Below are positions 2,404-39,397 of a stretch of DNA of 64,000 bases, in pieces. The notes below the pieces were generated by a model, which was not told the DNA's origin, made no database searches, and saw only the letters and a program-made list of their open reading frames with translations. Positions within the stretch are counted from its first letter, which is position 1, and each line of letters begins with the position of its first letter. Source of the stretch: a bacterium (GTDB lineage: Bacteria; UBA10199; 2-02-FULL-44-16; JAAZCA01); NCBI GenBank assembly GCA_963674695.2, contig CAXXGI010000003.1, forward strand, positions 480,001-544,000, in the 5' to 3' direction. Both the position numbers and the translations under genes were made by a program.

Positions 2404-2538
2404 CTCGTCCCTCCGATGTACGAATACTTCCACAGTAGGCCCACAGCGTCAACAAAAAAGCGCATGAGCCCTCCGCTGACCATGGCATTACAATGGCATT
2501 TAATGGGGGTTACAGTGAAATCATATTTTTTCGGGAAT

Positions 2539-3421: not shown

Positions 3422-3784
3422 TCAAGGCAACTGAAAATGACAGTCTTCCATGCGCAGATTTATCAACCCAAGACTGTTCCCAATCTCGACGGCCCTCTTC
3501 CATGCTGGGCCTTTCGTGTTCCAGTCGAGTTTGCCGCCGACCGAGATCGCAATGTCGAACGCCATTGCTGGCAATGAGTTGTGCCGACTCTTCCCAGGTT
3601 TGCAGCGCGTAAGTATCTTTCCCGATTTTGTTCTGCCCTGTGCGTATAGCTCCGCCTGCTCTTCGTTCGATCTGTGAGTGCACGTCAGGAATGCGTCATA
3701 TCCGGCTTCGTCCATCATTGCGTCCATCTTCGCCCACGCCGCCTTCAGTTTCGGAGCCAAGAGATTTGGGTTTCGACTGGCCAT
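3422..3784 (-). CDS. Endolysin, M15 family peptidase
   Basis: RSNEEQAELYAQGRT, SRHN...AFD, EDCHFQL zinc-peptidase motifs. Confidence 0.85.
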   Translation of the reverse strand: MASRNPNLLAPKLKAAWAKMDAMMDEAGYDAFLTCTHRSNEEQAELYAQGRTKSGKILTRCKPGKSRHNSLPAMAFDIAISVGGKLDWNTKGPAWKRAVEIGNSLGLINLRMEDCHFQLP

Positions 3785-3786
3785 AT

Positions 3787-4005
3787 TCACGTTCCCCGCT
3801 TCATCCACTCCTTCAGCCACAACAACACAAACCCAACCATCGCTGCGACAAACGCAATCGCCCCTGTGATCCGGTGTCGCCACTGTGTGTTTTTCTTCAC
3901 GGCATCACACACCCCGTCGATCTTTTCGCCCATCGCATCGACGGACGCCTTCATGCTTCCTATCTTTTCCGATATATCAATGAGGATAACGCGCTCGTCG
4001 GTCAT
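3787..4005 (-). CDS. Coiled-coil plus C-terminal TM lysis-region protein
   Basis: 72 aa, single C-terminal hydrophobic helix, upstream of endolysin. Confidence 0.55.
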   Translation of the reverse strand: MTDERVILIDISEKIGSMKASVDAMGEKIDGVCDAVKKNTQWRHRITGAIAFVAAMVGFVLLWLKEWMKRGT

Positions 4006-6651: not shown

Positions 6652-6761
6652 TTCGTGCCTCCTTTACTTCGCCGCTAGTTATCTAATTGATATTATTACC
6701 CTATTAAATCCTTGAATGTAGGCCCCGTCTAGGGGTAGTGTCCTCGACAGGAGGCCTTCCA

Positions 6762-7319
6762 ATGAAAAAGCTTATCTGCATTGCCCTTGTATCCATATTC
6801 GTTTCAGCGTGTGGCTCCGGTGGTTCAACGGCGCCGTCTTCATCGCCGTCAGGTGATGTGTCCGCATCCTTGCCCGATATTATCGATCAAATATCGGATG
6901 GTATTTTCAAGTATGCCGATCCATCACTCTACAGAGGCACATACTACAAGGCCAGCAACCCGACCGATACGTGCAGCAGCGACGGTGGAGTTATGCCAGC
7001 CACCATTGAAATCGCTGCCATGACAAACGGCTCAATGGTAATGATCTATGACGAATTTCAAGAAACGCTTGGTTCAATTCCTCAAACCGAATTTGATTTC
7101 TATGTCTTTGAAGGCCTTTACTCCGGGTATTCTTGCCTGTACGCCATGAGCAGCATGAACAGGTCGGGCACCATCGATAAGGCGGTTGCCTATTGCGAAG
7201 ACGCTGATTCGACCTTGTCGTGCGCCGTTGGATACGAGCGCGCTTCCGCTTACGACTTTACAACCACGACAATTAAAGGCGATCCAACAAATGCCTTTAA
7301 GAGCCTTGAGGACTTTTGA
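6762..7319 (+). CDS. Lipoprotein moron, the only sizeable plus-strand phage gene
   Basis: MKKLICIALVSIFVSAC lipobox, AGGAGG RBS, Ser/Gly linker. Confidence 0.7.
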   Translation: MKKLICIALVSIFVSACGSGGSTAPSSSPSGDVSASLPDIIDQISDGIFKYADPSLYRGTYYKASNPTDTCSSDGGVMPATIEIAAMTNGSMVMIYDEFQETLGSIPQTEFDFYVFEGLYSGYSCLYAMSSMNRSGTIDKAVAYCEDADSTLSCAVGYERASAYDFTTTTIKGDPTNAFKSLEDF

Positions 7320-18023: not shown

Positions 18024-18971
18024 TTATGCCGTCACTCCGCACATCACGCCGCACGCCGCAGCCCGGTCAGTCGTAAACTGGGCGTATAGAAGATACTTCG
18101 CGGCGCTGTAATCACCGTCTGCGGGCTCGATGAATTTCCCGATCGTGAAATTGTAATCTTCGTGGATGTACAGTTTCAGGTGGCGGGTGTTGAGGAGGTA
18201 AATCTTTCCGGACGGGCAGTTGTCGTCAAAAATGACGTCAATCCCCTGGAACTTCAGCGCCTGAAAACCAAGATCGGCAAGCTTCGGGTTCTGGTACTGA
18301 GCCTTGCCCTGGGCAATGTTCTCAAGATACCCAAAGTTCGTGTCGTCCATGACGATGATGTCCGGCTTGTTCGTGCCTCGCGTGAGGCTGCGAATCATCG
18401 TGGACATCTTCGGAACGAGATAAGTTCCGTATGAACCGACCGAGTCATCAACCTTGTTGCGCCAGAAAGCGTTTGTAGCGCGGTTGATTCCACCGAGTGT
18501 TCCGGTGGTCGGGTCGACGTCAACGAGAGCCTGCAAACCGAGAATGTCCTTGCCACCGTTCCCGGTTCCATCACCGAACATCATGACAGACACCTTATCT
18601 GCCATAGAAAGCTCGGCTTGCTCCTTCAACGTCTCAAGGATGCTGATCTGCTTTTCACGACCGGCGTTTCTCGCCCGGGTAATTCCGTCGATTGAAATCG
18701 GGCAGACGGTCTGCTTCCAGTTGAACTCCGCCGCCGTGATTCCACCGGGATCGGAGATGTCAATCGTGTCGCGACCGGCATAGCTCTGTGCGTTGGCCTT
18801 CTTGTAGAGTAGATCGCGCTGGATCTTGTCACCGCCATCGAGCTTGATCGCCTTCTTTAAAACCAAATACTTATACAGAGGAATATTGTTGCTGATATTA
18901 TCAGCCATAGTCTTCTGCAAATTGTTGAATGTCGTCGATGCAACCGCATCAAAATTTGGGTTTCCTGGCAT
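18024..18971 (-). CDS. Major capsid protein (HK97 fold)
   Basis: 315 aa; AEFNWKQ, FGDGTG...ILGL, GGINR...FWRN, PDII, IYLLNT. Confidence 0.85.
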   Translation of the reverse strand: MPGNPNFDAVASTTFNNLQKTMADNISNNIPLYKYLVLKKAIKLDGGDKIQRDLLYKKANAQSYAGRDTIDISDPGGITAAEFNWKQTVCPISIDGITRARNAGREKQISILETLKEQAELSMADKVSVMMFGDGTGNGGKDILGLQALVDVDPTTGTLGGINRATNAFWRNKVDDSVGSYGTYLVPKMSTMIRSLTRGTNKPDIIVMDDTNFGYLENIAQGKAQYQNPKLADLGFQALKFQGIDVIFDDNCPSGKIYLLNTRHLKLYIHEDYNFTIGKFIEPADGDYSAAKYLLYAQFTTDRAAACGVMCGVTA

Positions 18972-22302: not shown

Positions 22303-23694
22303 TCACAACGCCCCAATTCTCCGGGGTTTCAATTTCTCCTCACGTTCCGCCTGTCGTTCCGCCGCTTCCATCATCGTCATTTTCTTGTCCTGGTTCTTCC
22401 ACAACGGCGGCCGACTCATCAGTCCAAGCCTACAGCTTTCAAGCGCGTGATCGACACAGTCATCAGCAATATCCTCGACGTTTCTTTTGCTGTGATATGC
22501 TGACGTTAATTCCTCAATCAAATTCACGCATTGATTCGATATGTGCCACCACGAAGACTTCCCCCCCTGATAGTCTCGAAGTCTCAAGTAATCCCTCATC
22601 CGCGACCAGCCATCAATGCGCGACGAATCGCCCATCACCATCGGCACGCCGTTTTCGGCCCAAATGTCAGACCGTTTGACACTGGCCAACTTTCCATGTT
22701 TCCAATGCTCCACCTTGACCGGAAAGCTCTGTGGATCGCCGACAGTGTATTTGACGTCTTCGCTTTCCGCTGTGTAGCTGGCGACCTCTTGAGCGGCGAC
22801 GATGTCGTGCTTTTCGGTTTCATAATATTCCCGATACGTGTAAATGTGCTGATCCGGTCCTATCGCGTGCCAATAAACAGCCATCGGACTCGTGTATCCC
22901 CAATCTACTGTCCTGAACCGTGGCCAACTTTCAAGGATGCGAATATCAGCAGGGCTGTAAACGTGATGAACCCGATCAAACTCTGTGAAGTACGCCCCTT
23001 CGAATACATCCCAATTTCCATCTCTCCACGCTGATCGAAGAGGCTCCGGCAGACCGTTTAAAAAGTTCAGGTAATCCGGATCCTTTTTCATCAGCGTGGG
23101 GTTGTCTGTCACCTTCCCCGGAATGAATATTCTCGTCCTGCCAGTCACGGGATCAACGTATTTCGTCCCAGGTGGCGCGATCGATACGAACCGACCCTTG
23201 ACCCATCCGTGCCCAGGACCGCCAGGGTTCGACGTGTTGAACACCCTTGCGTCAATGCCATCAACCGTGGAGCGACAGGAGCTTATCAGCTTCAGGTAGC
23301 GTTTCTCGCTCGGTATCTGCGTCAACTCCTCGATCAACATCCGCTGATATTCATGCCCCTGGTACTTCTCGTAGGCGTTCTCGTCCTTGAGGTGGCCCGT
23401 CCTGATCTTCGCTCCGGAAGGAAACCTGATTTCCGCCGGTTGACCGATCACTTCGCCACCGCTTGACGCGTACATGAACCGTGCGCGGTCCAGCCAATCC
23501 CTCAAATCGTCCGCGTTCTTGCGGATCACCAACCCCCTGTATCGAGGGAACCGAATCGGCTTGGTCATCCACACGATTCCCCCATCCGTCTTCCCTGGCC
23601 CCCTTGCCCCCCCATAGAGGAGTTCAAACGCCACGGTCCGTAACGCCATCTCTTGCGGTCCGGGGTGAGGCTTCCATGTCAAAGAGCTACTCAT
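22303..23694 (-). CDS. terL: Terminase large subunit
   Basis: GGARGPGKT Walker A, IEELTQ Walker B, TSNPGGPGHGWVK, VDWG and DHALESCR nuclease motifs. Confidence 0.92.
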   Translation of the reverse strand: MSSSLTWKPHPGPQEMALRTVAFELLYGGARGPGKTDGGIVWMTKPIRFPRYRGLVIRKNADDLRDWLDRARFMYASSGGEVIGQPAEIRFPSGAKIRTGHLKDENAYEKYQGHEYQRMLIEELTQIPSEKRYLKLISSCRSTVDGIDARVFNTSNPGGPGHGWVKGRFVSIAPPGTKYVDPVTGRTRIFIPGKVTDNPTLMKKDPDYLNFLNGLPEPLRSAWRDGNWDVFEGAYFTEFDRVHHVYSPADIRILESWPRFRTVDWGYTSPMAVYWHAIGPDQHIYTYREYYETEKHDIVAAQEVASYTAESEDVKYTVGDPQSFPVKVEHWKHGKLASVKRSDIWAENGVPMVMGDSSRIDGWSRMRDYLRLRDYQGGKSSWWHISNQCVNLIEELTSAYHSKRNVEDIADDCVDHALESCRLGLMSRPPLWKNQDKKMTMMEAAERQAEREEKLKPRRIGAL

Positions 23695-24130
23695 CTTCCT
23701 TCGGCACGTAGAGTACTATCCCAACAGGTCTATCGGGATCGCCGGACAATTCGCTTTTGTCCGTCCACTTGTGCATATTCTTCAATGCAAAAATCGTTGC
23801 GGAAGGAACGAGCGAACCGGACATCATCCCACAGACCATCTTGTTCAATTGAATATCCTTGGCCATTTTATATGCCATGGAAAATTCGTCATGTTTTCCG
23901 CACCATTCAATCAACGTCCCGGTGTGAACGCCTATTTTGTCAGCGAAACCCTCGAAGAAGTTTGGAAGCTCACCGAGCTTGTGTTCGGTGACGTTGCCCT
24001 CATACGAAAACAGCTTGTAGACATCTTCCCCACCATCGCGCATGTGGTCGATAAGCTGCTGGCAATACTCTGGCTTGTATTTAGTGGGGCGACCAACCGG
24101 ACGTTTGCTCTTTTTCGGTTTATTGCTCAA
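23687..24130 (-). CDS. terS: Terminase small subunit
   Basis: VGRPTKYKPEY, TLIEW...EFS.AY, IFALKN..KW.DK; TTG start after GGAGAGG. Confidence 0.8.
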   Translation of the reverse strand: MSNKPKKSKRPVGRPTKYKPEYCQQLIDHMRDGGEDVYKLFSYEGNVTEHKLGELPNFFEGFADKIGVHTGTLIEWCGKHDEFSMAYKMAKDIQLNKMVCGMMSGSLVPSATIFALKNMHKWTDKSELSGDPDRPVGIVLYVPKEDE

Positions 24131-24255
24131 AGTACCTCTCCCGCGTTTCGCAGGAAAGGGCGGGCATCTCACCGTGGGGGTAAATTGAAATGCTGACGAG
24201 CGTGCCCGGTTCCCTTCCCACACATCAGAGATTAGCACGCCGTCAAGAATAACGC

Positions 24256-24471
24256 CTATGGGATTGAATGGTAGAGTGTGGTTTTGTTCGGTAGGTTTTT
24301 TGATTTCACGATGTTTTTGTCCATCCACTTCACAAGATCGCATTCCTCAACGACGATCCTTCCGTTGATTCGCTTGATTGGGAGCGGGCTGCTTTCATGC
24401 CACCGCCTCACGGTTTCCCAGCTTCGCCCGACTCTCTTTCCTATACCCTTCCATCCCCACAGTAAGCTCAT
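24256..24471 (-). CDS. Small HTH (Xis/AlpA-like) DNA-binding protein
   Basis: LWGWKGIGKRVGRSWETVRRW...LPIKRINGR. Confidence 0.65.
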   Translation of the reverse strand: MSLLWGWKGIGKRVGRSWETVRRWHESSPLPIKRINGRIVVEECDLVKWMDKNIVKSKNLPNKTTLYHSIP

Positions 24472-26073: not shown

Positions 26074-26364
26074 CTATCGCTCGCGCTCGGCCTCCTTCTC
26101 TTTCAGCAGCCGATCGATCTCATCACGCAGCCGCTCCTCTGTCCTACACATCTCGGCCAGGTATGGGCATGTCGATATGCAGTTGTTCGTTGGTTTATCC
26201 GTCGCTCTCTGATTGTTTTCGATTGCTTCCGATGCGATGGCGCATAGTTTTTCTATAAGCCTTTCTGGATTTACCACAACATCCGTCAGAGGATTCCATG
26301 TATCGTCCGTTCCCCTATCTCCTATTGCCGCCATAATAGCTTCTCTGATTTCCTTATCCATCAC
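26074..26364 (-). CDS. Mosaic hypothetical protein
   Basis: Carries the duplicated module; coupled start. Confidence 0.55.
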   Translation of the reverse strand: MMDKEIREAIMAAIGDRGTDDTWNPLTDVVVNPERLIEKLCAIASEAIENNQRATDKPTNNCISTCPYLAEMCRTEERLRDEIDRLLKEKEAERER

Positions 26365-26576
26365 TCCCCCTTTCTGATTCTATCTACGATCCGTTGCGCC
26401 TCGTTGTCCGACGAACACAGCCCAAAGATGATCGAGCAGCACCGCTCACGCTCTGTTGCGACGGCATCACATATTGCCTCCAAGCAAAATGACGAAGACA
26501 GCATTTGTCCAGGCTGCACTTTATCCCCGTCGAGATAGTTATTCTCGAACCACTTTTTAAGCTCATCGTGTGTCAT
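26361..26576 (-). CDS. Mosaic hypothetical protein
   Basis: Carries the duplicated C-terminal module. Confidence 0.5.
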   Translation of the reverse strand: MTHDELKKWFENNYLDGDKVQPGQMLSSSFCLEAICDAVATERERCCSIIFGLCSSDNEAQRIVDRIRKGE

Positions 26577-26950: not shown

Positions 26951-26986
26951 TGTGTTCTCCTTTTTAGGTTTGTTTTACACCACCAA

Positions 26987-27199
26987 TTAACTCGACCTAG
27001 ACCTAGACCTAGACCTCGACCACGACCTCGACCACGACCTCGACCACGACCTCGACCTCGACCACGACCCCGACCACGACCCCGACCTCGACCACGACCC
27101 CGACCACGACCCCGACCTCGACCTCGACCCCGACCTCGACCTCGACCACGACCCCGGCCACGACCTCGACCCCAACCCTGTATAACTTATCACTATCAT
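26987..27199 (-). CDS. Ser-Arg/Trp/Gly dipeptide-repeat peptide
   Basis: About 30 hexamer repeats TCG-NGG; GAGGAG-like RBS; directly upstream of the Sm-like gene. Confidence 0.6.
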   Translation of the reverse strand: MIVISYTGLGSRSWPGSWSRSRSGSRSRSGSWSGSWSRSGSWSGSWSRSRSWSRSWSRSWSRSRSRSRSS

Positions 27200-27410
27200 G
27201 TCATCCTCACTCTCTCCTATACCTCATATCCTGCGCTGCGAAGTTCTTCGTCAAGTATTTGAACGACAGCACTGGTAGCTGGCCTGGCAAACCACTCCCG
27301 TCTTACTGCCAGAGCTGCCTCTGCAACCTTCTCCAGTTGCTCGATGCGCTTCGTCAGCTCCTGACCACTCCGCACCAGTACTTTTGTTTTCATACAATCC
27401 TCCCTTACAA

Positions 27411-29166: not shown

Positions 29167-30345
29167 CTATCCCTTAATGACCGCCAGCGGTGACAACTCA
29201 GCTACAATATCAACAAGGTCTTCTTGGTTCTTCATCACGGTGCCAACGTCTTTGTATGCTCCTGCGGCTTCATCCAAATCCTTCTTGCTTCTCATCCCAT
29301 GAATGATTCCCTGTTCGTCCATGCGTGCAAGTTCATCTTTCAAGCTCAAAGTCCTCCGTGCTGCCTTGCGACCCATCGCCCTACCAGCCCCGTGAGAACA
29401 CGACGTAAACGATTCACGGTTCCCCTTGCCACGGACGATATAGCTCTTGCTCCCCTGGCTGCCTGGAATGATCCCGATGGTATCCTCACGGGCAAGCGTA
29501 GCACCCTTGCGATGCACGACCACGTTCTTCCCGAAGTGGTTTTCAATGGCGGCATAGTTGTGGGCAATGTTGATTGGGTTTCCAATATCACTACAGCCTG
29601 TGACGCCTTTGAATATCTCGACGACCCTATCCATCATCAACGAACGATTCGCCAACGCGAAGTCTACACAGTATTGCATTTCTTCCATGTAATTTTCGCC
29701 CTGTAAGTGATCCAGAGGAAGAAAAGCAAGGTCCCATTCGCGTGGCACACAAGAAAGGTATTGTTCGTTTAATTTCTTAGCTATGGAATTATAATGGTCA
29801 GCCACCTTCTTTCCCAAGTTCCTGCTTCCAGAGTGAATCATGACCCAAACGTAACCACAATCATCACGCTGAATTTCAATAAAATGGTTTCCACCTCCAA
29901 GAGTCCCAAGCTGCCGAAGCGCAGATTCAAATTCATTGGAAGCTACCGTCCACCCCCAATATTCACCGTTGGATCGCTTAGGCATAAGGCTCTCGTCTTG
30001 CCTCTCACTATGCCGAGAGAACCCAACGGGAATGGCCCTTCGAACCCGCCCCATGATTTCCTTGAGCTGGTCGGTGGTGATGTCGTTCGCTTTCATCCCT
30101 GTCTGTACTGCTATCATACCACAACCAATATCCACCCCAACTGCGTTCGGCACTACGACGTTATGAGTCGCGAGCACTCCACCAATCGGCATTCCGTACC
30201 CCTGATGACAGTCTGGCAGTAATGCGATATGCTTGAACGCGAACGGAAGGTTAGCCAAATGCGTTGCCTGTTCAAGCGCGCCCTCCTCTATATCGTCAAG
30301 CCACGCCTTTATTGGAATGCGATTCCCGCTGATAACCTGTTTCAT
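29167..30345 (-). CDS. rtcB: RtcB family RNA ligase
   Basis: LPDCHQGYGMPIG, VGVDIGCG, LGTLGGGNHFIE, HSGSR, AHNYA, HRKGAT, SHGAGR, DEA..AYK. Confidence 0.92.
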   Translation of the reverse strand: MKQVISGNRIPIKAWLDDIEEGALEQATHLANLPFAFKHIALLPDCHQGYGMPIGGVLATHNVVVPNAVGVDIGCGMIAVQTGMKANDITTDQLKEIMGRVRRAIPVGFSRHSERQDESLMPKRSNGEYWGWTVASNEFESALRQLGTLGGGNHFIEIQRDDCGYVWVMIHSGSRNLGKKVADHYNSIAKKLNEQYLSCVPREWDLAFLPLDHLQGENYMEEMQYCVDFALANRSLMMDRVVEIFKGVTGCSDIGNPINIAHNYAAIENHFGKNVVVHRKGATLAREDTIGIIPGSQGSKSYIVRGKGNRESFTSCSHGAGRAMGRKAARRTLSLKDELARMDEQGIIHGMRSKKDLDEAAGAYKDVGTVMKNQEDLVDIVAELSPLAVIKG

Positions 30346-30504
30346 TGTCTTCCCCTTATCGTAATACGTTTGAACGTAACCCTGTCGAAGTAACCGAACA
30401 CCATCTTCCCGCCGTATGGCATGTAGACAACAACTTCCCACCTATTCTTGCGAACAATCTCAGCACGGATATTCCTGCTTGCGATTCTGAGGTGCACGAC
30501 CATA

Positions 30505-30729: not shown

Positions 30730-31077
30730 TTATATCCGTTCCCAAGTCTTCCCACGTTTCCTGACCACGGTGAGCGGCGATAACGGATGGTGCGAGTCAA
30801 ACAACTTTCGTTTCATCCTAAACGCCTCCGTTACAACCCCCTTGACCTCTATCACTTCAACGCTTCCATCCGGGCGGTACACCGTAAAATCCGGCGTGTA
30901 CGTCACGTTCCCTGGCAAGCGGTAGGCTGGTTTCACTTCCAAATACGCAATGCGCTCCATGCCGAGATCCCTTTTCAAGAGCTGATAATATTCCGCTTCT
31001 GCCTTGCTATCGAACCGCAGCCCGTCGATCTCCGTGGGCTTGGCGTTGTATTTGTGGCGGTTCCAATGCACGCTCAT
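30730..31077 (-). CDS. DUF1064-like PD-(D/E)xK nuclease
   Basis: KYNAKPTEIDGLRFDSKAEA, YTPDF, IEVKG. Confidence 0.8.
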   Translation of the reverse strand: MSVHWNRHKYNAKPTEIDGLRFDSKAEAEYYQLLKRDLGMERIAYLEVKPAYRLPGNVTYTPDFTVYRPDGSVEVIEVKGVVTEAFRMKRKLFDSHHPLSPLTVVRKRGKTWERI

Positions 31078-32177
31078 AATTTCACGCTCGTTGCTTTCTT
31101 CGTTTTTGCAGGAGTGTAGATTACCCATTCACCATTTTCATATTTTCGACAGCATGAACAATCTTTCAGCACGCCGACCTGGGAGTTTCCCCACAGCTCG
31201 CCGACCCGGGAGTTTCCCCGCAGCTCGCCGACCCGGGAGTTTTCCCGCAGCTCGCCGACCCGGGAGTTTTCCCACAGCACGCCGACCCGGGAGTTTCCCC
31301 GCAGCTCGCCGACCTGGGAGTTTTCCCGCAGCACGCCGACCCGGGAGTTTCCCCACAGCACGCCGACCTGGGAGTTTTCCCGCAGCTCGCCGACCCGGGA
31401 GTTTCCCCACAGCTCGCCGACCCGGGAGTTTTCCCACAGCACGCCGACCCGGGAGTTTTCCCACAGCACGCCGACCCGGGAGTTTTCCCACAGCACGCCG
31501 ACCCGGGAGTTTCCCCGCAGCTCGCCGACCTGGGAGTTTTCCCGCAGCACGCCGACCCGGGAGTTTCCCCACAGCACGCCGACCTGGGAGTTTTCCCGCA
31601 GCTCGCCGACCCGGGAGTTTCCCCACAGCTCGCCGACCCGGGAGTTTTCCCACAGCACGCCGACCCGGGAGTTTTCCCACAGCACGCCGACCCGGGAGTT
31701 TCCCCGCAGCTCGCCGACCTGGGAGTTTCCCCGCAGCTCGCCGACCTGGGAGTTTTCCCACAGCTCGCCGACCTGGGAGTTTTCCCACAGCTCGCCGACC
31801 CGGGAGTTTTGCATCGATCCAATTTTAGTATTGATTGCCACCCTGTAGCTTGCGTTTCTCACCGCTTCGATTTTTTGATCGACCAAAAATTTTTTCGAAA
31901 TAAACTCCTTCAATGCAGCTTCCGTTATGCGCCTCGCCTTCGTTGGATCATACCAAACAGGGACTTCATCGAGATCCGTGCGGAACTCCCATTTCGACAA
32001 ATCCATTTCAGACAAATTGCCATCTGGCGGTGTTAGCTCTACGGGGACAAAATCAGGCGGCAGCTTGTTGTCCCTGAGTTTATTCTCTCGCTTAATATCT
32101 TCGTGTGAATCTGAATCCCACGAAAACAAGCATTTTCTGTTTTTGTACGTTACAATTCCGCTAAAGAAATTACACAT
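31074..32177 (-). CDS. Protein with 24 nine-residue tandem repeats (beta-solenoid candidate)
   Basis: MCNFFSG...SHEDI N-terminal domain then NS[RQ]VG[EV]L[WR][EG] x24. Confidence 0.7.
   Translation of the reverse strand: MCNFFSGIVTYKNRKCLFSWDSDSHEDIKRENKLRDNKLPPDFVPVELTPPDGNLSEMDLSKWEFRTDLDEVPVWYDPTKARRITEAALKEFISKKFLVDQKIEAVRNASYRVAINTKIGSMQNSRVGELWENSQVGELWENSQVGELRGNSQVGELRGNSRVGVLWENSRVGVLWENSRVGELWGNSRVGELRENSQVGVLWGNSRVGVLRENSQVGELRGNSRVGVLWENSRVGVLWENSRVGVLWENSRVGELWGNSRVGELRENSQVGVLWGNSRVGVLRENSQVGELRGNSRVGVLWENSRVGELRENSRVGELRGNSRVGELWGNSQVGVLKDCSCCRKYENGEWVIYTPAKTKKATSVKL
31167..31809. repeat. 27-bp tandem repeat, about 24 copies
   Basis: Minus-strand unit AACTCCCRGGTCGGCGWGCTGYGGGRA. 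Confidence 0.95.
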
Positions 32178-32196
32178 AGTTCACGCTCCCTGTTTG

Positions 32197-32868
32197 TTAT
32201 TGTCTCGCATGAACGCGCCCGAGAATGTCGAAGACTGGCTGCTCAACATGATTGATTCTCGCACGCCGCTCCTTCTCTTTTTCGGGATCGCTTTTGCTTG
32301 TGAGGGCCTCACTCACTGATCCGGGCACGACCACACCGACAAGCCTATCCGCGGCTTCCCGGCAGTCTTGCGGCGCACACTTCCAAGCGCGGCTTTTCAC
32401 TCCCATGAGCGCCAGGCCCTTGACCTGATGTTTGTCGTGTGGGTTCCACTCGCTGCGGTTTTTGAACGTCGGTGTGTAGCCGACTTTTGAAAAATCGTCC
32501 TGCCATGCGGGGTAATCGTGAACGCAATTACTGCACGAGCACTTAAAAAGCGTGGTGTAACTGTGCCCGCTGTATTTCCGCACCGCTGACAGTGTTCCAG
32601 AGCCCTCACACAACGCGCATACCTCCGACTCCCTCGCGACCGTTGGGTCTGGATACGTTCGGGCGATTTCGAGCAAAGCCTTGATTGTCGGGAACCTGTC
32701 CGAGTTCGTCAGGACGTACTCGATCGTCCGTGTGAATTGGCTATCTGAGATACGAGGGTCAAGGGCGCGGTAGTAAACCGGCTCCATCTTCTCCACGCGG
32801 CTTTCGGCCAACCCAAACGCTGCCGCAACTACCTTGATTTGCTCTTTAAAATACCCGTATGACAGCAT
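32197..32868 (-). CDS. Replication accessory (helicase-loader-like) protein
   Basis: Directly after the initiator; RFPTIKAL motif, CALCEGSG...CSC zinc site. Confidence 0.55.
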   Translation of the reverse strand: MLSYGYFKEQIKVVAAAFGLAESRVEKMEPVYYRALDPRISDSQFTRTIEYVLTNSDRFPTIKALLEIARTYPDPTVARESEVCALCEGSGTLSAVRKYSGHSYTTLFKCSCSNCVHDYPAWQDDFSKVGYTPTFKNRSEWNPHDKHQVKGLALMGVKSRAWKCAPQDCREAADRLVGVVVPGSVSEALTSKSDPEKEKERRARINHVEQPVFDILGRVHARQ

Positions 32869-33654
32869 CTACGCCTCCAATGGGATAACCTTGCCGTGCT
32901 CGTCGAAAATGGGATTCCCCTTCTCGTCGGTCTTCCACTTTGGCTTTGGCACCTTGCTGCGATGCTTTTGCAAAAAAGCATTCACCTCTCCGGGGACAAA
33001 CGCCACTGGGAAGCCCTCCTCCTTTGCCTTGCCGCCCTTCGAAAAGAAAAACGCGCATAACTCAGGCCACTGCTCTTTCGGCACCGCCGCCGCTATTTGC
33101 TGGCCGATCTTTCCAGCCATCCCCCACCACTGCTTCGGAGTGTGGTAGTCCTCGCCAAAAGCCCGCTTGTACTCGTGGCAAAAAACAGATCCGAAATTAT
33201 TTGGGGACGGGGGGGGATCTTTGACCTTCTCCTTCCTTCCTTCCTTCCTTCCTTTCCTTTCCTTCCTTCCTTCCTTCCCCCCGGAGTGTTCCGGGAGTGT
33301 TCCCGGAATGTTCCCGGAATGTTCCGACATAACTGGAATCATTGATTTTTTCGGATGGCTGATCGATTGGTGGTCGTCGAAGTCGTGACATTGGATATAT
33401 TTCTTTCCGTCGACCTCGTACCTGTGGATAAGTTGCGTTTTTTCGAGTTCGTCGAGGAGTTTTTCAACCACCTCGCCGGTCGCCGAGTAGTACCTCGGAC
33501 ATCGTGCCCCGATCTCCATCACATCATCGACAAGACGCCCCTCATCGTCTGCGTGGTTCCACAGCGAAATATTGAGGAATGCCGCGTCAACAGAGCACCT
33601 AAGCTGTTTTCCGCTTGAGAAATAATCAGGTTTCACGGTTCGTATCCTCGCCAT
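32869..33654 (-). CDS. Phage replication initiator with internal origin
   Basis: MARIRTVKPDYF...LWNHADDEGR N-terminal domain; internal iterons. Confidence 0.75.
   Translation of the reverse strand: MARIRTVKPDYFSSGKQLRCSVDAAFLNISLWNHADDEGRLVDDVMEIGARCPRYYSATGEVVEKLLDELEKTQLIHRYEVDGKKYIQCHDFDDHQSISHPKKSMIPVMSEHSGNIPGTLPEHSGGKEGRKERKGRKEGRKEKVKDPPPSPNNFGSVFCHEYKRAFGEDYHTPKQWWGMAGKIGQQIAAAVPKEQWPELCAFFFSKGGKAKEEGFPVAFVPGEVNAFLQKHRSKVPKPKWKTDEKGNPIFDEHGKVIPLEA
33231..33325. promoter_or_regulatory. Putative replication origin: (CCTT)n tract plus four 11-bp iterons
   Basis: SGGARTGTTCC at 33282, 33293, 33304 and 33315. Confidence 0.65.
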
Positions 33655-33950
33655 TAGAAAAGCTCCCCCTGAGAATCACGCTCTTTTGTGCACCACTCGA
33701 TCGACATCCTACCGCTCACCCTGCACATGCGTTTGTGGCATCGATCTCCGCTCGGAACCGATCCCTCTTTCCTCAAATCGTCGATCCTCGCGCTGATCGT
33801 TCCCGGAAACCATCCGAACACCTCCGACAATTCCCTGATTGTGCTCGGGCGTCTTACCAGATGCCAATAGATCGCTTCTCTCTGGTTCCTCGCCGTTCCG
33901 TCGTTCAATATTTCATGCCGTGCCATCAGGCTTGTTGGTTGCACTCGCAT
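33654..33950 (-). CDS. Winged-HTH protein
   Basis: STIRELSEVFGWFPGTISARIDDLRKEG. Confidence 0.65.
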   Translation of the reverse strand: MRVQPTSLMARHEILNDGTARNQREAIYWHLVRRPSTIRELSEVFGWFPGTISARIDDLRKEGSVPSGDRCHKRMCRVSGRMSIEWCTKERDSQGELF

Positions 33951-34197
33951 ATTCCCTCCAATACTTTGCAGCGAGCTCCTTTAATTCGTCTCGATAAGCC
34001 CCAATGAAACGATGGACACGTTCATGACACCGACGGCAGAGAGGAACGCAGCTCTCATCGTCTCCTCGTTTAGAAAGCCCTCGATCATTGTAAACGTGAT
34101 GGGGATCATTGCCGTGCCATGATGATTGCGCCCCGCATCGACAACAGGGTTGCTCTCTGATCCAACGCAAATAAGGTTCATTTTTCACCTTCATCAA
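33913..34197 (-). CDS. DUF968/HNH-like nuclease
   Basis: YLRWIREQPCCRCG...DPHH...VPLCRRCH. Confidence 0.75.
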   Translation of the reverse strand: MMKVKNEPYLRWIREQPCCRCGAQSSWHGNDPHHVYNDRGLSKRGDDESCVPLCRRCHERVHRFIGAYRDELKELAAKYWREYASATNKPDGTA

Positions 34198-34540
34198 GTT
34201 TGTCCTTTACCCAACCGATCATCGACTCGACTTTGTCTCGATAAAAACGCTCGAAATCTCCCTCGCCACCAAGCTGTTTCCACCAGACAAACAAAACACC
34301 TCGCAACCGCTGCGCCGGCGTTTTCTCGCTGCGAAAGTCTTTCGGTGGCTCGCTTGGGATTTCAATCTGCGTTGACGATTCCGGGCAAAACAGCATCCAC
34401 CCGAAAGACTGGTTCATGCGCATGAGCGTTGCGCCCATTTCTGGTGAGATTTCTTGCGTATGGAACGTGACCTTCAGCGAGCGGTCCTTTAGCGTCTTGT
34501 GACCTTCGAGAAGGGCCCCAACCTTTAGAACGTCTTCCAT
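34178..34540 (-). CDS. Phage hypothetical protein
   Basis: KTPAQRLRGVLFVWWKQ; GGGGAG RBS. Confidence 0.6.
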   Translation of the reverse strand: MEDVLKVGALLEGHKTLKDRSLKVTFHTQEISPEMGATLMRMNQSFGWMLFCPESSTQIEIPSEPPKDFRSEKTPAQRLRGVLFVWWKQLGGEGDFERFYRDKVESMIGWVKDKLDEGEK

Positions 34541-34556
34541 GACTCCCCCAAGAGAG

Positions 34557-34602
34557 AGGAGGCGGGGTGGCGAACCACCCCGGCCCTTTCGGGCGACCTC
34601 CT
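34557..34602 (-). ncRNA. Compact three-way-junction RNA element
   Basis: AGGAGG/CCTCCT closes GCCC-GAAA-GGGC and CGGGGTGG-TTCG-CCACCCCG. Confidence 0.55.
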
Positions 34603-34615
34603 GAACCCTAAAAGA

Positions 34616-35728
34616 TTAGATCGGCACATCCGCTTCATTTTCTTCCTTCGGCGGCTTGCTTCCATTTCCACCACCGGGCAACCCGAGGTGTTCAATTTTA
34701 ACGCGCTCAATTGCCGCCTCAATATCCTCCGGTCGCTTCCTCTCGATTGCAGTTTTTGAGCTTGTACCGAAAAGCTGCTCCAAAACTTCAATCCGTCGTT
34801 TTTTGGTATCGCCGGAAGTGCCCGTCAGGCCCGCCTTTGTGAGTACAGCATCGAACTCTTCAAGTGCTATGTCGCGCCGCCGAAACATTCGCTGCAATGA
34901 TCCATCACCATTATCATCGAACATATCTTCGGACGTGCTCGTGGTGTTCAGCCCGTAATGCTCACCTCCAAGGTTAAGGCATTCGATGTGTGGCAGATAG
35001 TCATCGAACTTCGGGTTGTCGAATGACTTTGAGTCGAGTATTCCGAACCGCTCTTTGACCACGTTGCAGCGACGAACGTAGGTCCCATCACCCTCTGAAT
35101 AGACCTTCTCCATCTCGCAGAGGATTGACGGCTCATACCCGGTGTCACCCTCTGCACGCATCTTCGTTCCGCTCTTCACGCTCGTCTTTTTTGTCCTGCC
35201 GTTTCGCTCTTGTTCTTCTGTGGTGTAGATCGCGCCTTCCCTGCCGCACATTATGATGTGGAGCTTGGAATTGACGAAACGATCGCGGTATTGCGTGCGC
35301 CACTCCTTCTTGATTGGCTTCCAGTCCCACAACTCGATGTAGTTCTGTTTCCGCTTCTTCATGTAGGCATCGGTGAACTCGTCCCATACGTTCGTGATCG
35401 AATCGATAATCAGAATGGAGCATTCCTTTTCCGCTTCATCCATGACCGCGACCAAGTCCTTGAGCGCCGATCCGTTGAACGTCACAAGCTCGATTCCCGC
35501 CGTCTTGAACTTCGGCAGAATAAAACTCGACCCCGTTTCTGTGTCGAAGAACGCAACGGGCTTGTCGCTCTTGATGAACTTATGCAGTCCGAGAGCCACC
35601 CCTGATGCCGTCCATGTTTTTCCGGACCCCGTATCTCCGTAGAGCCCCATTTTTAGATATGCCATTGTGTTTTGTGCTGGTTTTAAAAGTCCCACAACTG
35701 CCTCCTCTCCCGTTCTTGACACTCCCAA
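34616..35728 (-). CDS. Sak4-like AAA+ ATPase (recombination)
   Basis: GDTGSGKT, FFDTETGS, LIIDSIT. Confidence 0.75.
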   Translation of the reverse strand: MGVSRTGEEAVVGLLKPAQNTMAYLKMGLYGDTGSGKTWTASGVALGLHKFIKSDKPVAFFDTETGSSFILPKFKTAGIELVTFNGSALKDLVAVMDEAEKECSILIIDSITNVWDEFTDAYMKKRKQNYIELWDWKPIKKEWRTQYRDRFVNSKLHIIMCGREGAIYTTEEQERNGRTKKTSVKSGTKMRAEGDTGYEPSILCEMEKVYSEGDGTYVRRCNVVKERFGILDSKSFDNPKFDDYLPHIECLNLGGEHYGLNTTSTSEDMFDDNGDGSLQRMFRRRDIALEEFDAVLTKAGLTGTSGDTKKRRIEVLEQLFGTSSKTAIERKRPEDIEAAIERVKIEHLGLPGGGNGSKPPKEENEADVPI

Positions 35729-35932
35729 TCAATGAGAGTATCCAGAACGTGCTTGCGTGATCTTGTGCAATAGAGTCCGCACTCTGAACTGTTCTTCGAG
35801 ATACGATATTTCGTCCTCGAAAAACGCTTGCTCAAGATCCGGGTCCGGGTCGACCATACGGTCGGCCCGTTCTGCATCTACGAACGTCTTCCACTCTCCG
35901 TGCTGCCTGGTCCCCCACGCCATGAGCTTCAT
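35729..35932 (-). CDS. Hypothetical protein
   Basis: GGAGG RBS, coupled ORF. Confidence 0.5.
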   Translation of the reverse strand: MKLMAWGTRQHGEWKTFVDAERADRMVDPDPDLEQAFFEDEISYLEEQFRVRTLLHKITQARSGYSH

Positions 35933-36141
35933 GATTCACCTCCTTTCTCTAAAATATTTTTCGCCTTGTTTATTACAAGCAGTGCAAGAAAGATTGCGTT
36001 GGTAACGATCTTCGGATCTCCCCTCAACGACGGCCGTAGCAGGACTTTTGTTAGCGACTCACATTCCACGACCAACTCGCGGATAATCGCGTCCCTCTCC
36101 GCATCGACATCGGCGATCATTTTTAGTGCGTGCTCGGTCAT
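35929..36141 (-). CDS. Hypothetical protein
   Basis: MTEHALK...; start follows the upstream stop. Confidence 0.5.
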   Translation of the reverse strand: MTEHALKMIADVDAERDAIIRELVVECESLTKVLLRPSLRGDPKIVTNAIFLALLVINKAKNILEKGGES

Positions 36142-36145
36142 GGGT

Positions 36146-36448
36146 TCACCCCGCCTTTCTTTGCCACCGTTTATCGTTGCAGGTCGTGCAGATGAGGACG
36201 TAAACGAGGCATCCCGTTTCGGGATCGTACTGACGTTCCATGTCTTCTTTGAGAAGCCGCAGCCCGCAAGCTGCACACTCCGCGGTGTACTCTTCGCAGT
36301 CAGGGCAGAGAGGCTTTCCCTTGGAATCCACGGCCTCTTCCCCTGGGCGGCAGTCGATTCCACCCCCACAATGAGAGCAGCGCATATCCTCGTCCCGATC
36401 TTCCGGTGAGGCCAATTTGTATGCGTCGTATCCTGGCAGGCGTTCCAT
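36146..36448 (-). CDS. Multi-CxxC zinc-finger protein
   Basis: CSHC, CPDC, CAAC and CTTC motifs. Confidence 0.6.
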   Translation of the reverse strand: MERLPGYDAYKLASPEDRDEDMRCSHCGGGIDCRPGEEAVDSKGKPLCPDCEEYTAECAACGLRLLKEDMERQYDPETGCLVYVLICTTCNDKRWQRKAG

Positions 36449-36451
36449 CGT

Positions 36452-36823
36452 TCACCCCTTTCCGCCGGCAATGGCGATCAACGTAGGTCGTTGAGGTTCA
36501 ACGCGACGTTTCTTTGCGTCGTGAAAAATGCGCTGCTTGATGAGAGTGTTTTGCTTCGATTGATACCCGCTCGCGCGCGGCCCCTTGACAATCGGGGCAA
36601 ACGGATTGCGCGAGCGAAACACGCACCCCGAATGCTGTGCTCGACGCCACGCCACGGTTGCCGATAGCTCGTAGGCGACATGCCAACACCGGGAGTGCTG
36701 CCAGTTGATGTCGATAACTTGGTACAGTGCGGATTGTGCGCGCCTGACTCGGCGCTCGATCGGGCCACTGCGATAAATCGTGACTTCCTGGCGCACTTTG
36801 AGCGCCTTGACCACAGAGAGCAT
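36452..36823 (-). CDS. First early gene, basic hypothetical protein
   Basis: GAGGAGG RBS; directly downstream of the sigma54-type promoter. Confidence 0.55.
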   Translation of the reverse strand: MLSVVKALKVRQEVTIYRSGPIERRVRRAQSALYQVIDINWQHSRCWHVAYELSATVAWRRAQHSGCVFRSRNPFAPIVKGPRASGYQSKQNTLIKQRIFHDAKKRRVEPQRPTLIAIAGGKG

Positions 36824-36893
36824 AGATCCTCCTCATGCTCTCCCCCATGCGAGCATCCGGGTTGCGCCGACGGGCGGCGTGTGCTAACCCCGA

Positions 36894-36911
36894 TTGCATT
36901 GATCGTGCCAA
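36894..36911 (-). promoter_or_regulatory. Sigma54-type promoter of the phage early operon
   Basis: TTGGCACGATCAATGCAA (GG-N10-GC). Confidence 0.65.
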
Positions 36912-37061
36912 TTTTTGGGCCTTATTTATCAGGTACTTGCGTGACTGGTGGCGCTGCGGATTGGAGCGGTTTTTGTCCAACTTCAAACTCAAGATATGGA
37001 CGGGCAAACTCAAGACGGATTTTGTACACGCTTGATTATCAAGAGGTTTTGATGTAAGTAG

Positions 37062-37089
37062 AGCGGTGTTTTTATATCTTATACGACCC
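37062..37089 (-). other. attR: dif-like site with degenerate XerD arm
   Basis: Minus strand GGGTCGTATAA-GATATA-AAAACACCGCT. Confidence 0.8.
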
Positions 37090-37145
37090 TGTGTCGATAT
37101 CACGAGAGGGCGCGCTTTCAGCCCACATCCACGGAGTGACCGCAC

Positions 37146-39227
37146 ATGTATCGCAGAGCCAACATCGCGCCGGTTTCCGCCCAACAGCAATGCCCTGTAT
37201 CGATCGAGACGAGCCCTGCCGTCGATTACAAGGTCTCGATCCTGCAGCAGAGCGTCACCGCTCTCAAGACGATGCAGCGAACGGATGGCTACTGGTGGTT
37301 TGCGCTCGAGGCCAATGAATCGATCGGCTCGGAGTTCATCTTTCTGATGCACTATCTGGATGAGGTTGACGAATCGATCATGGCTGGCATCGCGCAGCGC
37401 ATTCGGGATATGCAGCGCAGCGATGGCAGCTGGACCCTCTATTATGACGGCCCCGGGCATCTCTCCGCATCGATCGAGTGCTATTTCGCCTTAAAACTCG
37501 CGGGATTCACCGAATCCGACCCGATGATGGCCAAGGCGCGTGACTTCATCAGGGCCAGTGGCGGCATTGAGCGAGCCACAGTCTTCACAAAGATCCACTT
37601 GGCCATGTTTGGGCTGGTGCCCTGGAGTGCCGCGCCCGCCATGCCGGTCGAGTTCATGCTCCTGCCCAGCTGGTTTCCGGTGAACATCTATAGCTTCTCG
37701 AGCTGGGCGCGCGCGACCATCGTGCCGCTGTTGGTCTTCATGTCGGAGCAAAAGACAAAAAAACTGAACAAGAACATTACGTTGGATGAAATCTTTCTGA
37801 ACCGGCCTGATGAGCGCGATTATGCCTTTCACACGGGAAAATCCTTTTTTTCCTGGGAGTCTTGGTTCATTCGGATCGATAAATACTTGAAATGGTACGA
37901 GAAACTCCCTTGGAAGCCGTTGCGTAACTATGCGAAAAAGAAGTGTTTATCCTGGACCTGGGAGCATGTCTCCAAGACGGAGGATATCTATCCGGCCATG
38001 GCCTATGCGGCGTTTGCAGCAAAGGCGGCGGGGTTTGAAAACAGCGATCCGCGCATTCGGCAGCCCTTTGAGGGGCTCAAGATGTTCCAGCAGTATTATG
38101 CGACGGAAGAGCTCGTGCCGATGCCGGACGAGATCCGCGATGACGGGCAGACGCGCCCTTCCGAGCTACGCGCGATGGGCATCGACCCCCGGGTCTCTGA
38201 TGGCGGGTCACGGGTTACGGGTCACGGGTTACGGATCCACCAACAGTGCTGCATCTCGCCGCTCTGGGATACGCCCTGGACGCTCACCGCACTCCTCGAT
38301 GCGGGCACTCCGGCGGATGATCCGGATCTGTTGCGCTCCGGGCGGTGGTTGCTGGCCAAGCAGATTACGGACGTCCGTGGCGATTGGGCGGTGAAAAATC
38401 CGAACGGAGTTCCCGGCGGATGGCCGTTCGAGTTCGAGAACGACTATTTTCCCGACATAGACGATTCGATCCAGATATTATCCGTCCTTCATCGGTTGGC
38501 GCTTTCCGAGGCGGAGACCGAGGGACCCTGCAAGCTGGGGCTCGACTGGGTGCTGTCGATGCAGAACGACGATGGCGGTTGGGGGGCGTTCGACAAGAAT
38601 CAGACGCAGGAGCTGGTCAACCGGATCCCCTTCTCCGACCATAAGGCCTGCCTCGATCCCTCATCCCCCGATATCGCCGGGCGCGTTCTGGAGCTGCTGG
38701 CGGCCTACGGTTTCGCGCAGGATCATCCTGCCGTGGCCCAGGCCCTGAGCTATATCTGGCGGCATCAGGAGTCATTCGGTGGCTGGTTTGCGCGTTGGGG
38801 CATCAACTATATCTATGGAACCTGGTGCGTGCTGACCGGTCTTTCCGCCATCGGGTGGGATATGGACGATCCGCGTGTGCTCAAGGCGATCGGCTGGCTG
38901 CGTTCGGTCCAGAATGCAGATGGCGGGTTTGGCGAGTCGGCCGAGTCGTATGATCGCGGAACCTATGTCCCGCTGGGCGTGAGTACGGCGTCACAGACCG
39001 CCTGGGGGCTGATGGGGCTCGTGGCTGCCGGGCGTGCCGATGCCGGCTGTGCGCGGCGTGCCGCTGAATATCTGCTGAACACGCGCAATCGCGCCGGCGC
39101 CTGGGATGAACAGCACTACACCGGGACGGGATTTCCCGGCCACTTCTACATCCGCTATCACGGTTACCGCCACTTCTTCCCGGTGATCGCCCTGGCCCGC
39201 TATCAACGCGCCGTCGGTGTGCTCTAG
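37146..39227 (+). CDS. shc: Squalene-hopene cyclase
   Basis: PDIDDS (DxDD), QW repeats (QRSDGSW, QNDDGGW, QNADGGF), GTGFPGHFYIRY. Confidence 0.93.
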   Translation: MYRRANIAPVSAQQQCPVSIETSPAVDYKVSILQQSVTALKTMQRTDGYWWFALEANESIGSEFIFLMHYLDEVDESIMAGIAQRIRDMQRSDGSWTLYYDGPGHLSASIECYFALKLAGFTESDPMMAKARDFIRASGGIERATVFTKIHLAMFGLVPWSAAPAMPVEFMLLPSWFPVNIYSFSSWARATIVPLLVFMSEQKTKKLNKNITLDEIFLNRPDERDYAFHTGKSFFSWESWFIRIDKYLKWYEKLPWKPLRNYAKKKCLSWTWEHVSKTEDIYPAMAYAAFAAKAAGFENSDPRIRQPFEGLKMFQQYYATEELVPMPDEIRDDGQTRPSELRAMGIDPRVSDGGSRVTGHGLRIHQQCCISPLWDTPWTLTALLDAGTPADDPDLLRSGRWLLAKQITDVRGDWAVKNPNGVPGGWPFEFENDYFPDIDDSIQILSVLHRLALSEAETEGPCKLGLDWVLSMQNDDGGWGAFDKNQTQELVNRIPFSDHKACLDPSSPDIAGRVLELLAAYGFAQDHPAVAQALSYIWRHQESFGGWFARWGINYIYGTWCVLTGLSAIGWDMDDPRVLKAIGWLRSVQNADGGFGESAESYDRGTYVPLGVSTASQTAWGLMGLVAAGRADAGCARRAAEYLLNTRNRAGAWDEQHYTGTGFPGHFYIRYHGYRHFFPVIALARYQRAVGVL

Positions 39228-39250
39228 CATTTCAAGGGTGTCATTCATAA

Positions 39251-39351
39251 GGTGTCATTCCCGCCCCCGATTCAATCATTCGAGGGCAGGCTCCAGCGGG
39301 AATCTCGCTTTGTACGGCACATCGAGATCCCCGCCTGCGCGGGGATGACAA
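39251..39351. repeat. Composite REP element (long variant)
   Basis: GTCATTCCCGCCCCCGATTCAATCATTCGAGGGCAGGCTCCAGCGGGAATCTCG plus an inverted REP; also at about 41917 and 54273. Confidence 0.85.
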
Positions 39352-39397
39352 AAACAAGGGTTTGTCATCAACCGGAGAACTCTGTCGATTATTCTCT

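Follow-up and report, generated by a model that had tools for sequence, protein, structure and literature searches.

The stretch of bacterial DNA analysed here (64,000 nucleotides, called the window below; contig CAXXGI010000003.1 of assembly GCA_963674695.2, positions 480,001 to 544,000) contains a tailed prophage, which lies between two host genes, one for a sigma factor and the other for a squalene-hopene cyclase, and which interrupts a site with the layout of dif, the recombination site of the host XerC and XerD proteins. The prophage stands out by its composition, with a G+C content of 0.48-0.56 inside the 35-kb insert against 0.58-0.63 outside it and with a uniformly negative GC skew inside. 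A preliminary description of the window had reconstructed from the two junctions of the insertion a phage attachment site (attP) with a XerC arm and no XerD arm, and had guessed that one of four small open reading frames (ORFs) encodes a phage protein, possibly of a new kind, that activates Xer recombination there. Our analysis identifies the half site as a property of a phage lineage and points to one of the four products, a basic protein of 123 aa, as the leading candidate for an Xer accessory factor. The coordinates of the features are collected in Table 1.

Read on the minus strand, the left junction (attL) is ACGTCGTATAA-GATATA-TTATGTAACAT and the right junction (attR) is GGGTCGTATAA-GATATA-AAAACACCGCT. 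The former is laid out as a dif site, with two 11-bp arms around a 6-bp centre and with the inner ATAA and TTAT inverted; which arm is XerC-type and which XerD-type we take to be as in the well-established dif sites of E. coli and Vibrio. The central hexamer is identical at both junctions, as had been described, and the outer arm of attR agrees with the XerD-type arm of attL at 2 of 11 positions (counted by hand; about 2.75 are expected by chance). The 15-mer GTCGTATAAGATATA, common to both sites, occurs exactly twice in the window at up to two mismatches (2064-2078 and 37073-37087, both on the minus strand), in like orientation and with a repeat-to-repeat unit of 35,009 bp. A chance repeat as the origin of this pair was rejected, since two matches were reached in none of 100 shuffles of the window. 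In the whole genome of 3,033,874 bases there is no other 28-mer within seven substitutions of attL or attR, and among the 18 genomic ATAA-N6-TTAT sites attL alone has dif-like arms (by eye). Its outer arm is similar to the Vibrio dif arm quoted in the accessible part of PMC12715192. Because of which arm faces the host at each junction, the arms can be swapped to reconstruct the bacterial site (attB) and attP: the latter combines a XerC-type arm with the same central hexamer as in dif and lacks a XerD-type arm, just as first proposed, and in the integrated state the left junction is a complete dif, with the right junction devoid of a XerD arm. The view that the phage inserted into the host dif and left an intact dif at attL is thus borne out by the site sequences, by their uniqueness in the genome and by the empty site in relatives, to which we now turn.

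We inspected 19 loci around the sigma factor gene in relatives from the same family, order and class. Twelve of them carry a dif-like site just downstream of that gene (consensus nnGTCGTATAA-GrTATA-TTATGTnnnnT), and in nine of the 19 the cyclase gene follows directly after the site, which represents the empty attachment site. The XerC arm and centre deduced for the host of the present prophage (genome under study, G000) are unchanged in the relative L009. GC skew assigns dif to the terminus region of C3: the cumulative skew of this contig, prophage included, peaks at 480 kb, where dif lies, and the maximum shifts to about 565 kb when the prophage is excised, so that the 480-kb peak is partly an artefact of the prophage, which has a negative skew of its own. 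The genome encodes XerD (TIGR02225, 357 bits against a cut-off of 329.6) and XerC (TIGR02224, 337 bits against 335.15), and its single match to FtsK-gamma (PF09397) is the host FtsK. Integration targeted to a tRNA gene was rejected, as no tRNA gene is present between positions 1 and 40000 of the window. Two other elements flank the insertion. One, of about 30 bp (1985-2017), lies right beside dif and has many copies in the genome and in relatives (97% matches), and the other, near 39.3 kb (about 39250-39357), shows a summed contig depth of 40-85x that of its surroundings; both look like dispersed repeats of the REP (repetitive extragenic palindromic) type.

By the families we could recognize in it, the prophage has no recombinase gene. 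Six-frame searches of the genome with profile hidden Markov models (HMMs) gave five matches to tyrosine recombinases (PF00589), four to serine recombinases (PF00239) and one to the rve transposase domain (PF00665), none of which falls within the prophage (C3:482053-517089). Recombinase families were likewise absent among the 50 ORFs scanned against PHROGs and the 30 scanned against Pfam, most of the ORFs having no match at all, and a megablast comparison of the prophage with GenBank phages returned no match. Besides the genes listed in Table 1, the profile scans identified an AAA_24/Sak4-like ATPase and an HNH nuclease. The DUF3653 domain (PF12375) of XafT, the known activator of XerD in TLC-type elements, had no match at E<=1 in the whole genome and none at E<=0.001 in the 93 genomes of the phylum, and the genome search for FtsK-gamma found no copy inside the prophage. 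With neither domain in the phage, any activator would need to be of a new kind, as the preliminary description had suspected. Contigs of organism A from public runs, which may be the source of the assembly, span attR (X3 record 6, 31771-39278; X4 record 17, 36770-38787). Among 20 of 146 listed loose contig ends none lies at the attachment site, and such contigs cannot reveal rare excised forms.

Table 1. Features of the prophage, its junctions and its host flanks (positions in the window)
Feature	Position	Strand	Evidence or remark
attR, half site	37062-37089	-	XerC-type arm 37079-37089, host side; identical centre 37073-37078; unrelated outer arm 37062-37072, phage side
attL, full dif-like site	2053-2080	-	XerD-type arm 2053-2063, host side; centre 2064-2069; XerC-type arm 2070-2080, phage side
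Two exact 11-bp direct repeats TCTTGAGTTTG	36984-37015 (37005-37015, 36984-36994)	-	21 bp apart; candidate accessory (arm-type-like) sites
123-aa basic protein	36452-36823	-	First gene inward of attR; leading candidate Xer accessory/activation factor; AlphaFold2 pLDDT 86
13-bp palindrome CTTGAT-T-ATCAAG (plus strand; T-A centre) with AWTCAA motif	37031-37043	.	By eye
100-aa cysteine-rich, zinc-ribbon-like protein	36146-36448	-	Second gene inward of attR; Pfam zinc_ribbon_16 0.0015, below curated cut-off
65-aa ribbon-helix-helix protein (NikA/CopG-like)	2236-2433	-	Last gene before phage-side XerC arm of attL; NikA-like 1.2e-5, 25.8 bits against cut-off 27
Tailed (Caudoviricetes) prophage body	2081-37061	-	PHROG matches; nearly all long ORFs on minus strand
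Endolysin	3422-3883		PHROG match
Major head protein	18024-18971		PHROG 5.9e-67
Large terminase	22303-23694		PHROG 1.4e-37
Small terminase	23687-24343		PHROG match
RtcB RNA ligase	29167-30441		PHROG 1075, 3.6e-121
Holliday-junction resolvase, RusA-type	30730-31128		PHROG 190, 1e-35
Replication initiator	32869-33654		PHROG match
Sigma factor, RpoH-like (left host flank)	1034-1954	+	Best PDB sequence match RpoH, 3.1e-47; synteny with dif in relatives
Squalene-hopene cyclase (right host flank)	37146-39227	+	PDB sequence match 6.4e-146; adjoins dif in 9 of 19 loci of relatives

A search for homologues of the 123-aa protein in 93 genomes of the class found them in two other genomes, G012 and G086 (two further weak matches with stop codons were set aside). 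In G012 the right junction, AAGTCGGATAA-GGTATA-TTATAGCTAGT, lies between the cyclase gene and the 123-aa homologue, and the left junction, on another contig, presents the sigma factor gene, a complete dif, a ribbon-helix-helix (RHH) gene (51% identity), a spanin-like gene and an endolysin gene (65%). This arrangement identifies in G012 a related tailed prophage that occupies the same site and ends in the same genes. Between G000 and G012 the phage-side XerC arms agree at 10 of 11 positions, against 9 of 11 between phage-side and host arm within G000 and 8 of 11 within G012 (counted by hand); their being closer to each other than to the arms of their own hosts confirms that they come from the phage. 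In G086, from another family of the class, the right junction AATGCGCATAA-TGTATC-TTTTATCTCTT again separates the cyclase gene from the 123-aa homologue; a search with the 15-mer at up to two mismatches did not find a full dif or the other junction in this genome, so the right junction alone is documented.

The fourth context is a viral contig of 34,775 bp, G098, located independently by an exact 15-mer scan and by a protein search; of the 36 matches that the scan gave in viral contigs, all except this one (L067) look like chance by their context. Here the site AGGTCGTATAA-GATATA-TCGCGTCTGAT is internal to phage DNA, with homologues of tail, lysis and head proteins on the side of the XerC arm and a 123-aa homologue about 110 bp off on the other side, and the contig has no PF00589 match. 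G098 is, as read from these flanks, a phage with an unintegrated attP of the very geometry that had been reconstructed from the two junctions. Since this non-integrated phage has the same XerC arm and centre without a XerD arm, the half site did not arise by decay after insertion, which the preliminary description had named as the alternative; the corresponding site has an intact XerD arm in none of G098, G012 and G086, and the half site is a property of the lineage. In each of the phage-host pairs seen, all six positions of the centre are those of dif; the centre is shared by both junctions in G000 as in G012, and in the G098 attP is that of the dif sites of G000 and of loci L002, L004, L009 and L013.

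The lineage also has members of another kind. A structural relative, G042 (L096, L098, L107 and L108), has head, portal-region and terminase genes 34-61% identical to those of the prophage and an AAA_24 gene 58% identical, and encodes a tyrosine integrase (record positions 26076-26531); integrase and dif-mimic modules seem to be exchanged for one another within the lineage. In the structural relatives G041, G043, G044 and G045, which are too far removed to be informative, we found neither a PF00589 match nor a dif-like attP of the present type.

On the arm-less side of the core, the two 11-bp repeats of G000 begin at +75 bp, counted from the XerC arm's first base. Our comparison revealed pairs of 10-11-bp direct repeats exactly 21 bp apart in three of the four phages, at +75 (G000), +71 (G086) and +74 (G098), their sequences differing from phage to phage. 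Shuffled sequences reached such a pair in 1 of 2000 cases for G000, 1 of 2000 for G086 and 12 of 2000 for G098. The repeats keep a constant distance from the core, while the start of the gene lies about 160, 75 and 22 bp from them. In all four phages an AWTCAA motif, which in G000 belongs to a short palindrome, is seen by eye, without statistics, at +51 to +58 bp from the start of the XerC arm.

The 123-aa protein has no match in Pfam, PHROG or NCBIfam, and its family is rare, with seven matches at E<=0.001 in a profile search of 1,835,955,588 representatives. Its gene or a homologue adjoins the half site in all four contexts (G000, G012, G086 and G098). One family member, P0007, is a fusion of 502 aa, whose N-terminal part is a tyrosine recombinase (PF00589, 5.5e-9, above the cut-off; SAM-like N-domain families score below their cut-offs, and the best PDB sequence matches are XerC-like/XerA, 2e-5), and whose residues 402-498 correspond to the 123-aa family domain (hhalign probability 98.5%, E 3e-15). 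A C-terminal tail of the form hydrophobic-x-GGK is shared by five of the six other aligned full-length members, diverges in P0008 and is absent from the P0007 fusion. An AlphaFold2 model is confident although built from no more than seven sequences (predicted local distance difference test, pLDDT, 86; predicted template modelling score, pTM, 0.75); it has a four-stranded antiparallel sheet, of which the ERRVRR strand is invariant, as well as one short and one long helix (the latter at 87-108). In both VIA-align searches the top rows were arm-type binding domains of integrases, with Z-scores tied with those of unrelated chains: 3jtz (Z 4.9, root-mean-square deviation (rmsd) 3.1, 70 residues aligned) and 3ju0 (Z 5.1, rmsd 3.0, 74 aligned). 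We take this modelled likeness as no more than a lead.

Other searches with the 123-aa protein added little: a Foldseek search of BFVD with the model gave a best E of 0.03, to unnamed proteins, a PDB profile search nothing below E 0.58, the ESM Atlas no usable match, and a word-index homologue search the protein itself alone. Further family contexts were not found in an alignment search of viral contigs, in two scans of genome contigs or in viral scans with P0007 and P0006; a viral scan with P0003 recovered G098 alone, and a metagenome scan G098 and the contig of G012. Co-folding of the host XerD (36 sequences) with the 123-aa family (seven sequences) gave a score of 0.00, which weighs neither way. 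P0003, the closest homologue (59%), is recorded, like P0014, a XerD 73% identical to that of the host, on a contig of 173,031 bp; this hints at another lysogen, with its phage near xerD and dif (in G000 xerD is about 72 kb from dif). Among the candidates of the preliminary description, that encoded at 36452-36823 has thus gained strong comparative support, from its place beside the half site in four of four contexts, the rarity of its family, the fusion to a recombinase and the nearby repeats; the activating function assigned to it is predicted from these associations.

Taken together, our results are best explained by a temperate tailed phage of about 35 kb having entered dif, where XerC and XerD resolve chromosome dimers, by site-specific recombination with an attP that partly mimics dif; to this explanation with all the parts set out below we give about an even chance. 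It is highly probable, by analogy with known elements, that the host XerC and XerD integrate the phage and that the missing XerD arm shields the prophage from excision driven by FtsK: dimer resolution would go on at the complete dif of attL, and the arm-less attR would block FtsK-driven excision, as argued for TLC-phi and the gonococcal genetic island. Slightly short of an even chance, in our estimate, is the further step that integration needs a phage accessory module, always located on the arm-less side of the core and made up of the pair of phased direct repeats, whose distance from the core is fixed at 71-75 bp, and of the product of the adjacent gene 36452-36823. The beta-sheet domain of this 123-aa protein could bind the phased repeats, and its conserved C-terminal tail or its long helix could recruit or activate a Xer recombinase at the arm that is unable to bind XerD. 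The protein would then act in trans as the arm-binding domain of a lambda-type integrase acts in cis, and would reach by another route what XafT achieves. A bolder version, which we hold to be rather doubtful, is that in tailed phages of this lineage the integrase has been replaced outright by a two-part adaptor, in which phased arm-type repeats beside a half dif are combined with a small protein of a new family that attaches to them and docks onto XerC or XerD of the host. If this were true, the dimer resolvase would become a lambda-like heterobivalent integrase assembled in trans, and Xer activation or recruitment factors would have, after XafT, a second and unrelated class in the 123-aa family, with P0007 as the covalent form of the adaptor.

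Several observations weigh against this explanation or its parts. As regards the repeats, the pair in G012 consists of no more than weak 7-mers (+73, 20 bp apart), is reached by 927 of 2000 shuffles and is not significant on its own. From their position upstream of the 123-aa gene, the repeats might also be operators of the usual kind. The outer arms of G012, G086 and G098 keep 5-6 of 11 XerD-arm positions, mostly inner ones, so that "no XerD arm" is strictly true for the G000 prophage only (2 of 11). The attP differs from dif at both positions 1 and 5 of the XerD arm, and this may reflect a different way of working or drift. The count of neighbourhoods comprises four contexts and excludes P0003, P0004, P0006, P0007 and P0008, and the fusion to a recombinase is known from a single protein, P0007, on a contig of 2,412 bp. 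With regard to the likeness to arm-binding domains, the fold matches are weak (Z about 5, tied with unrelated rows), Foldseek with the 123-aa model found nothing (best E 0.39), no Pfam family was matched by the seven family members at E<=10, and Arm-DNA-bind_3 (PF13356) has no match in the genome at E<=10. With the prophage cut out, the GC-skew maximum and the dif site are about 83 kb apart. Finally, catalysis by Xer, binding of the 123-aa protein to DNA and to XerC or XerD, and activity of the prophage are things that we infer, at most, from sequence.

The best surviving alternative, which we regard as unlikely, is Xer integration without a dedicated activator. XerC alone would swap one pair of strands at the conserved XerC arm, and replication or the phage resolvase (30730-31128) would then resolve the junction, on the XerC-first pattern of CTX-phi and VGJ-phi; the 123-aa protein would be a regulator encoded by the first early gene, and the tandem repeats upstream of that gene its operators. 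The XerC arm and the centre are indeed the sole conserved parts of attP, and a RusA-type resolvase is encoded by the phage. However, the attP of XerC-first elements of the CTX-phi/VGJ-phi type keeps a XerD-binding arm and has a centre that is non-homologous on the XerD side, whereas the present attP has no such arm and has the same bases as dif at all six central positions, with the consensus of the host family in the free phage, which is the signature of TLC-type and not of XerC-first integration. A role of the repeats as operators fits poorly with their constant distance from the core and variable distance from the gene start, and against a mere regulator stands the fusion of the domain, in P0007, to a Xer-like recombinase. 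It is consistent with the activator-free scheme that in the integrase-less Vibrio elements, according to the accessible part of PMC12715192, a repressor gene is one of the two terminal genes beside attP.

Considerably less likely is that another small protein serves as the Xer accessory or directionality factor, namely the RHH protein (2236-2433) or the zinc-ribbon protein (36146-36448). The RHH gene, which was not among the four candidates of the preliminary description, encodes a product with a PDB sequence match to CopG (0.16); it is the terminal gene on the XerC-arm side of attP and is kept at the same position in G012, but no RHH homologue was seen beside attP in G098. Cysteine-rich small ORFs follow the 123-aa homologue in both G012 and G098, but tblastn detected no sequence match between them and the product of 36146-36448, nor do the zinc-ribbon ORFs show detectable similarity to one another, so that this candidate is left with positional analogues only. 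Accessory proteins at plasmid Xer sites do act via flanking sequences, as the accessible sections of PMC9226527 describe, but neither the RHH nor the zinc-ribbon protein is linked to recombinases. The two remaining candidates have lost ground: the helix-turn-helix protein encoded at 24256-24471, beside the terminase gene, is unlikely to be specific for Xer because it has a homologue in the integrase-carrying G042, and that at 2539-2778 is weakened by its G098 homologue, which lies 3.2 kb from attP in the lysis module. That an unrecognised phage recombinase targets a sequence overlapping dif, with Xer uninvolved, is very improbable, for although most phage ORFs match no family and the relative G042 shows that the lineage uses integrases too, the six-frame HMM searches for tyrosine, serine and rve enzymes were empty in the prophage, as was that for PF00589 in G098, and attP copies the XerC arm and centre precisely and in the right register across hosts with differing dif (the G000/G098 type and the G086 type).

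Some further features of the prophage deserve mention. Its RtcB RNA ligase may counter tRNA-cleaving defences. An ORF of 367 aa on the minus strand (31074-32177), without a family match, contains a 27-bp unit repeated at least 23 times with shifts of register; the tract (31032-31925, about 890 bp) encodes a 9-residue repeat NSxVGxLxx, and its contig depth is uneven in public runs. In the early region an array of 12/18-bp repeats (GACCTCGACCAC-like; 26955-27202) lies in or beside an ORF of 70 aa. Two duplicated pairs of segments (25674-25785/26099-26210 and 25852-25965/26355-26468; 95% and 85% identity, respectively) suggest tandem paralogous small genes. The sole sizeable prophage ORF on the opposite strand (6738-7319, plus strand; 193 aa) matches nothing in PHROG or Pfam and might function in lysogeny or exclusion.

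The element shares with the IMEXs (integrative mobile elements that exploit Xer) the insertion in dif, the lack of a recognisable recombinase of its own, an attP that mimics dif and one junction that restores dif. Of the features of the TLC type it has, at the level of sequence, an attP without a proper XerD arm and a centre equal to that of dif, but not XafT: the 123-aa protein does not match the DUF3653 profile in a profile search. The element would therefore work like a TLC-type IMEX without being a member by the presence of XafT, since neither the phage, nor the genome, nor the phylum (93 genomes) has a DUF3653 match. In the accessible sections of PMC6744903 and PMC9226527, TLC-phi resembles the present phage in that it integrates at dif without an integrase of its own, in that after its insertion one dif is functional and the other site should be closed to FtsK-driven recombination, and in that a small phage gene adjoins the arm-less side of attP; its attachment site, as given in PMC6744903, is a poor or absent XerD substrate, the remainder of which mimics dif. 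The present element differs from TLC-phi in being a tailed double-stranded DNA phage of 35 kb and not a small satellite or filamentous element, in having a host from a small phylum (93 species genomes) and not from the gamma- or beta-proteobacteria, in the two XerD-arm positions mentioned above, and in its phased repeats beside the core, as XafT, according to the same sections of PMC6744903, needs no flanking DNA.

The integrase-less double jelly-roll and CTX-I filamentous prophages at Vibrio dif sites, as presented in the accessible part of PMC12715192, are similar in having fixed terminal genes beside attP and one junction that restores dif. They are tailless or filamentous, smaller than about 16 kb and equipped with XafT/P15, whereas the prophage described here has a tailed virion module (head protein, terminase) and a terminal gene of an unrelated family. 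The gonococcal genetic island shares with it the lack of a XafT-like gene, for which the authors of PMC6744903, in the sections available, raised an activator of another superfamily; it is, however, a conjugative-type island and not a phage, and comes without a named candidate factor in those sections. That an arm-less site prevents FtsK-driven excision has been argued for both TLC-phi and this island in the accessible text of PMC6744903 and PMC9226527. We found no tailed-phage IMEX in the open-access literature, where the elements described are filamentous, double jelly-roll or tailless, micro-viruses and islands. A tailed integrase-less lineage at dif would show that lack of an integrase does not imply that a tailed phage is virulent, with consequences for the prediction of phage lifestyle and for the finding of prophages.

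Heterobivalent integrases (lambda Int, and those of HPI and HAI7; 3jtz, 3ju0) offer the other comparison. They have in common with the 123-aa protein a small domain of beta-sheet and helix, here the proposed binder of repeats flanking the core; their arm domains are its top, if weak, structural neighbours, and one member of its family is fused to a recombinase. In our phage the domain is a separate protein, without a sequence match to arm-binding families and with DNA binding as a proposed property, and in the P0007 fusion it is C-terminal and not N-terminal. What is new here is the direct view of an unintegrated attP, a conserved gene family with a recombinase fusion, and the phased repeats. 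The XafT work, in the accessible sections of PMC6744903, left open the existence of other superfamilies of Xer activators, and the present locus, in a phylum in which DUF3653 was not found (93 genomes), supplies a testable candidate for such a second class, with its partner gene, accessory repeats, natural fusion to a recombinase and four attP variants.

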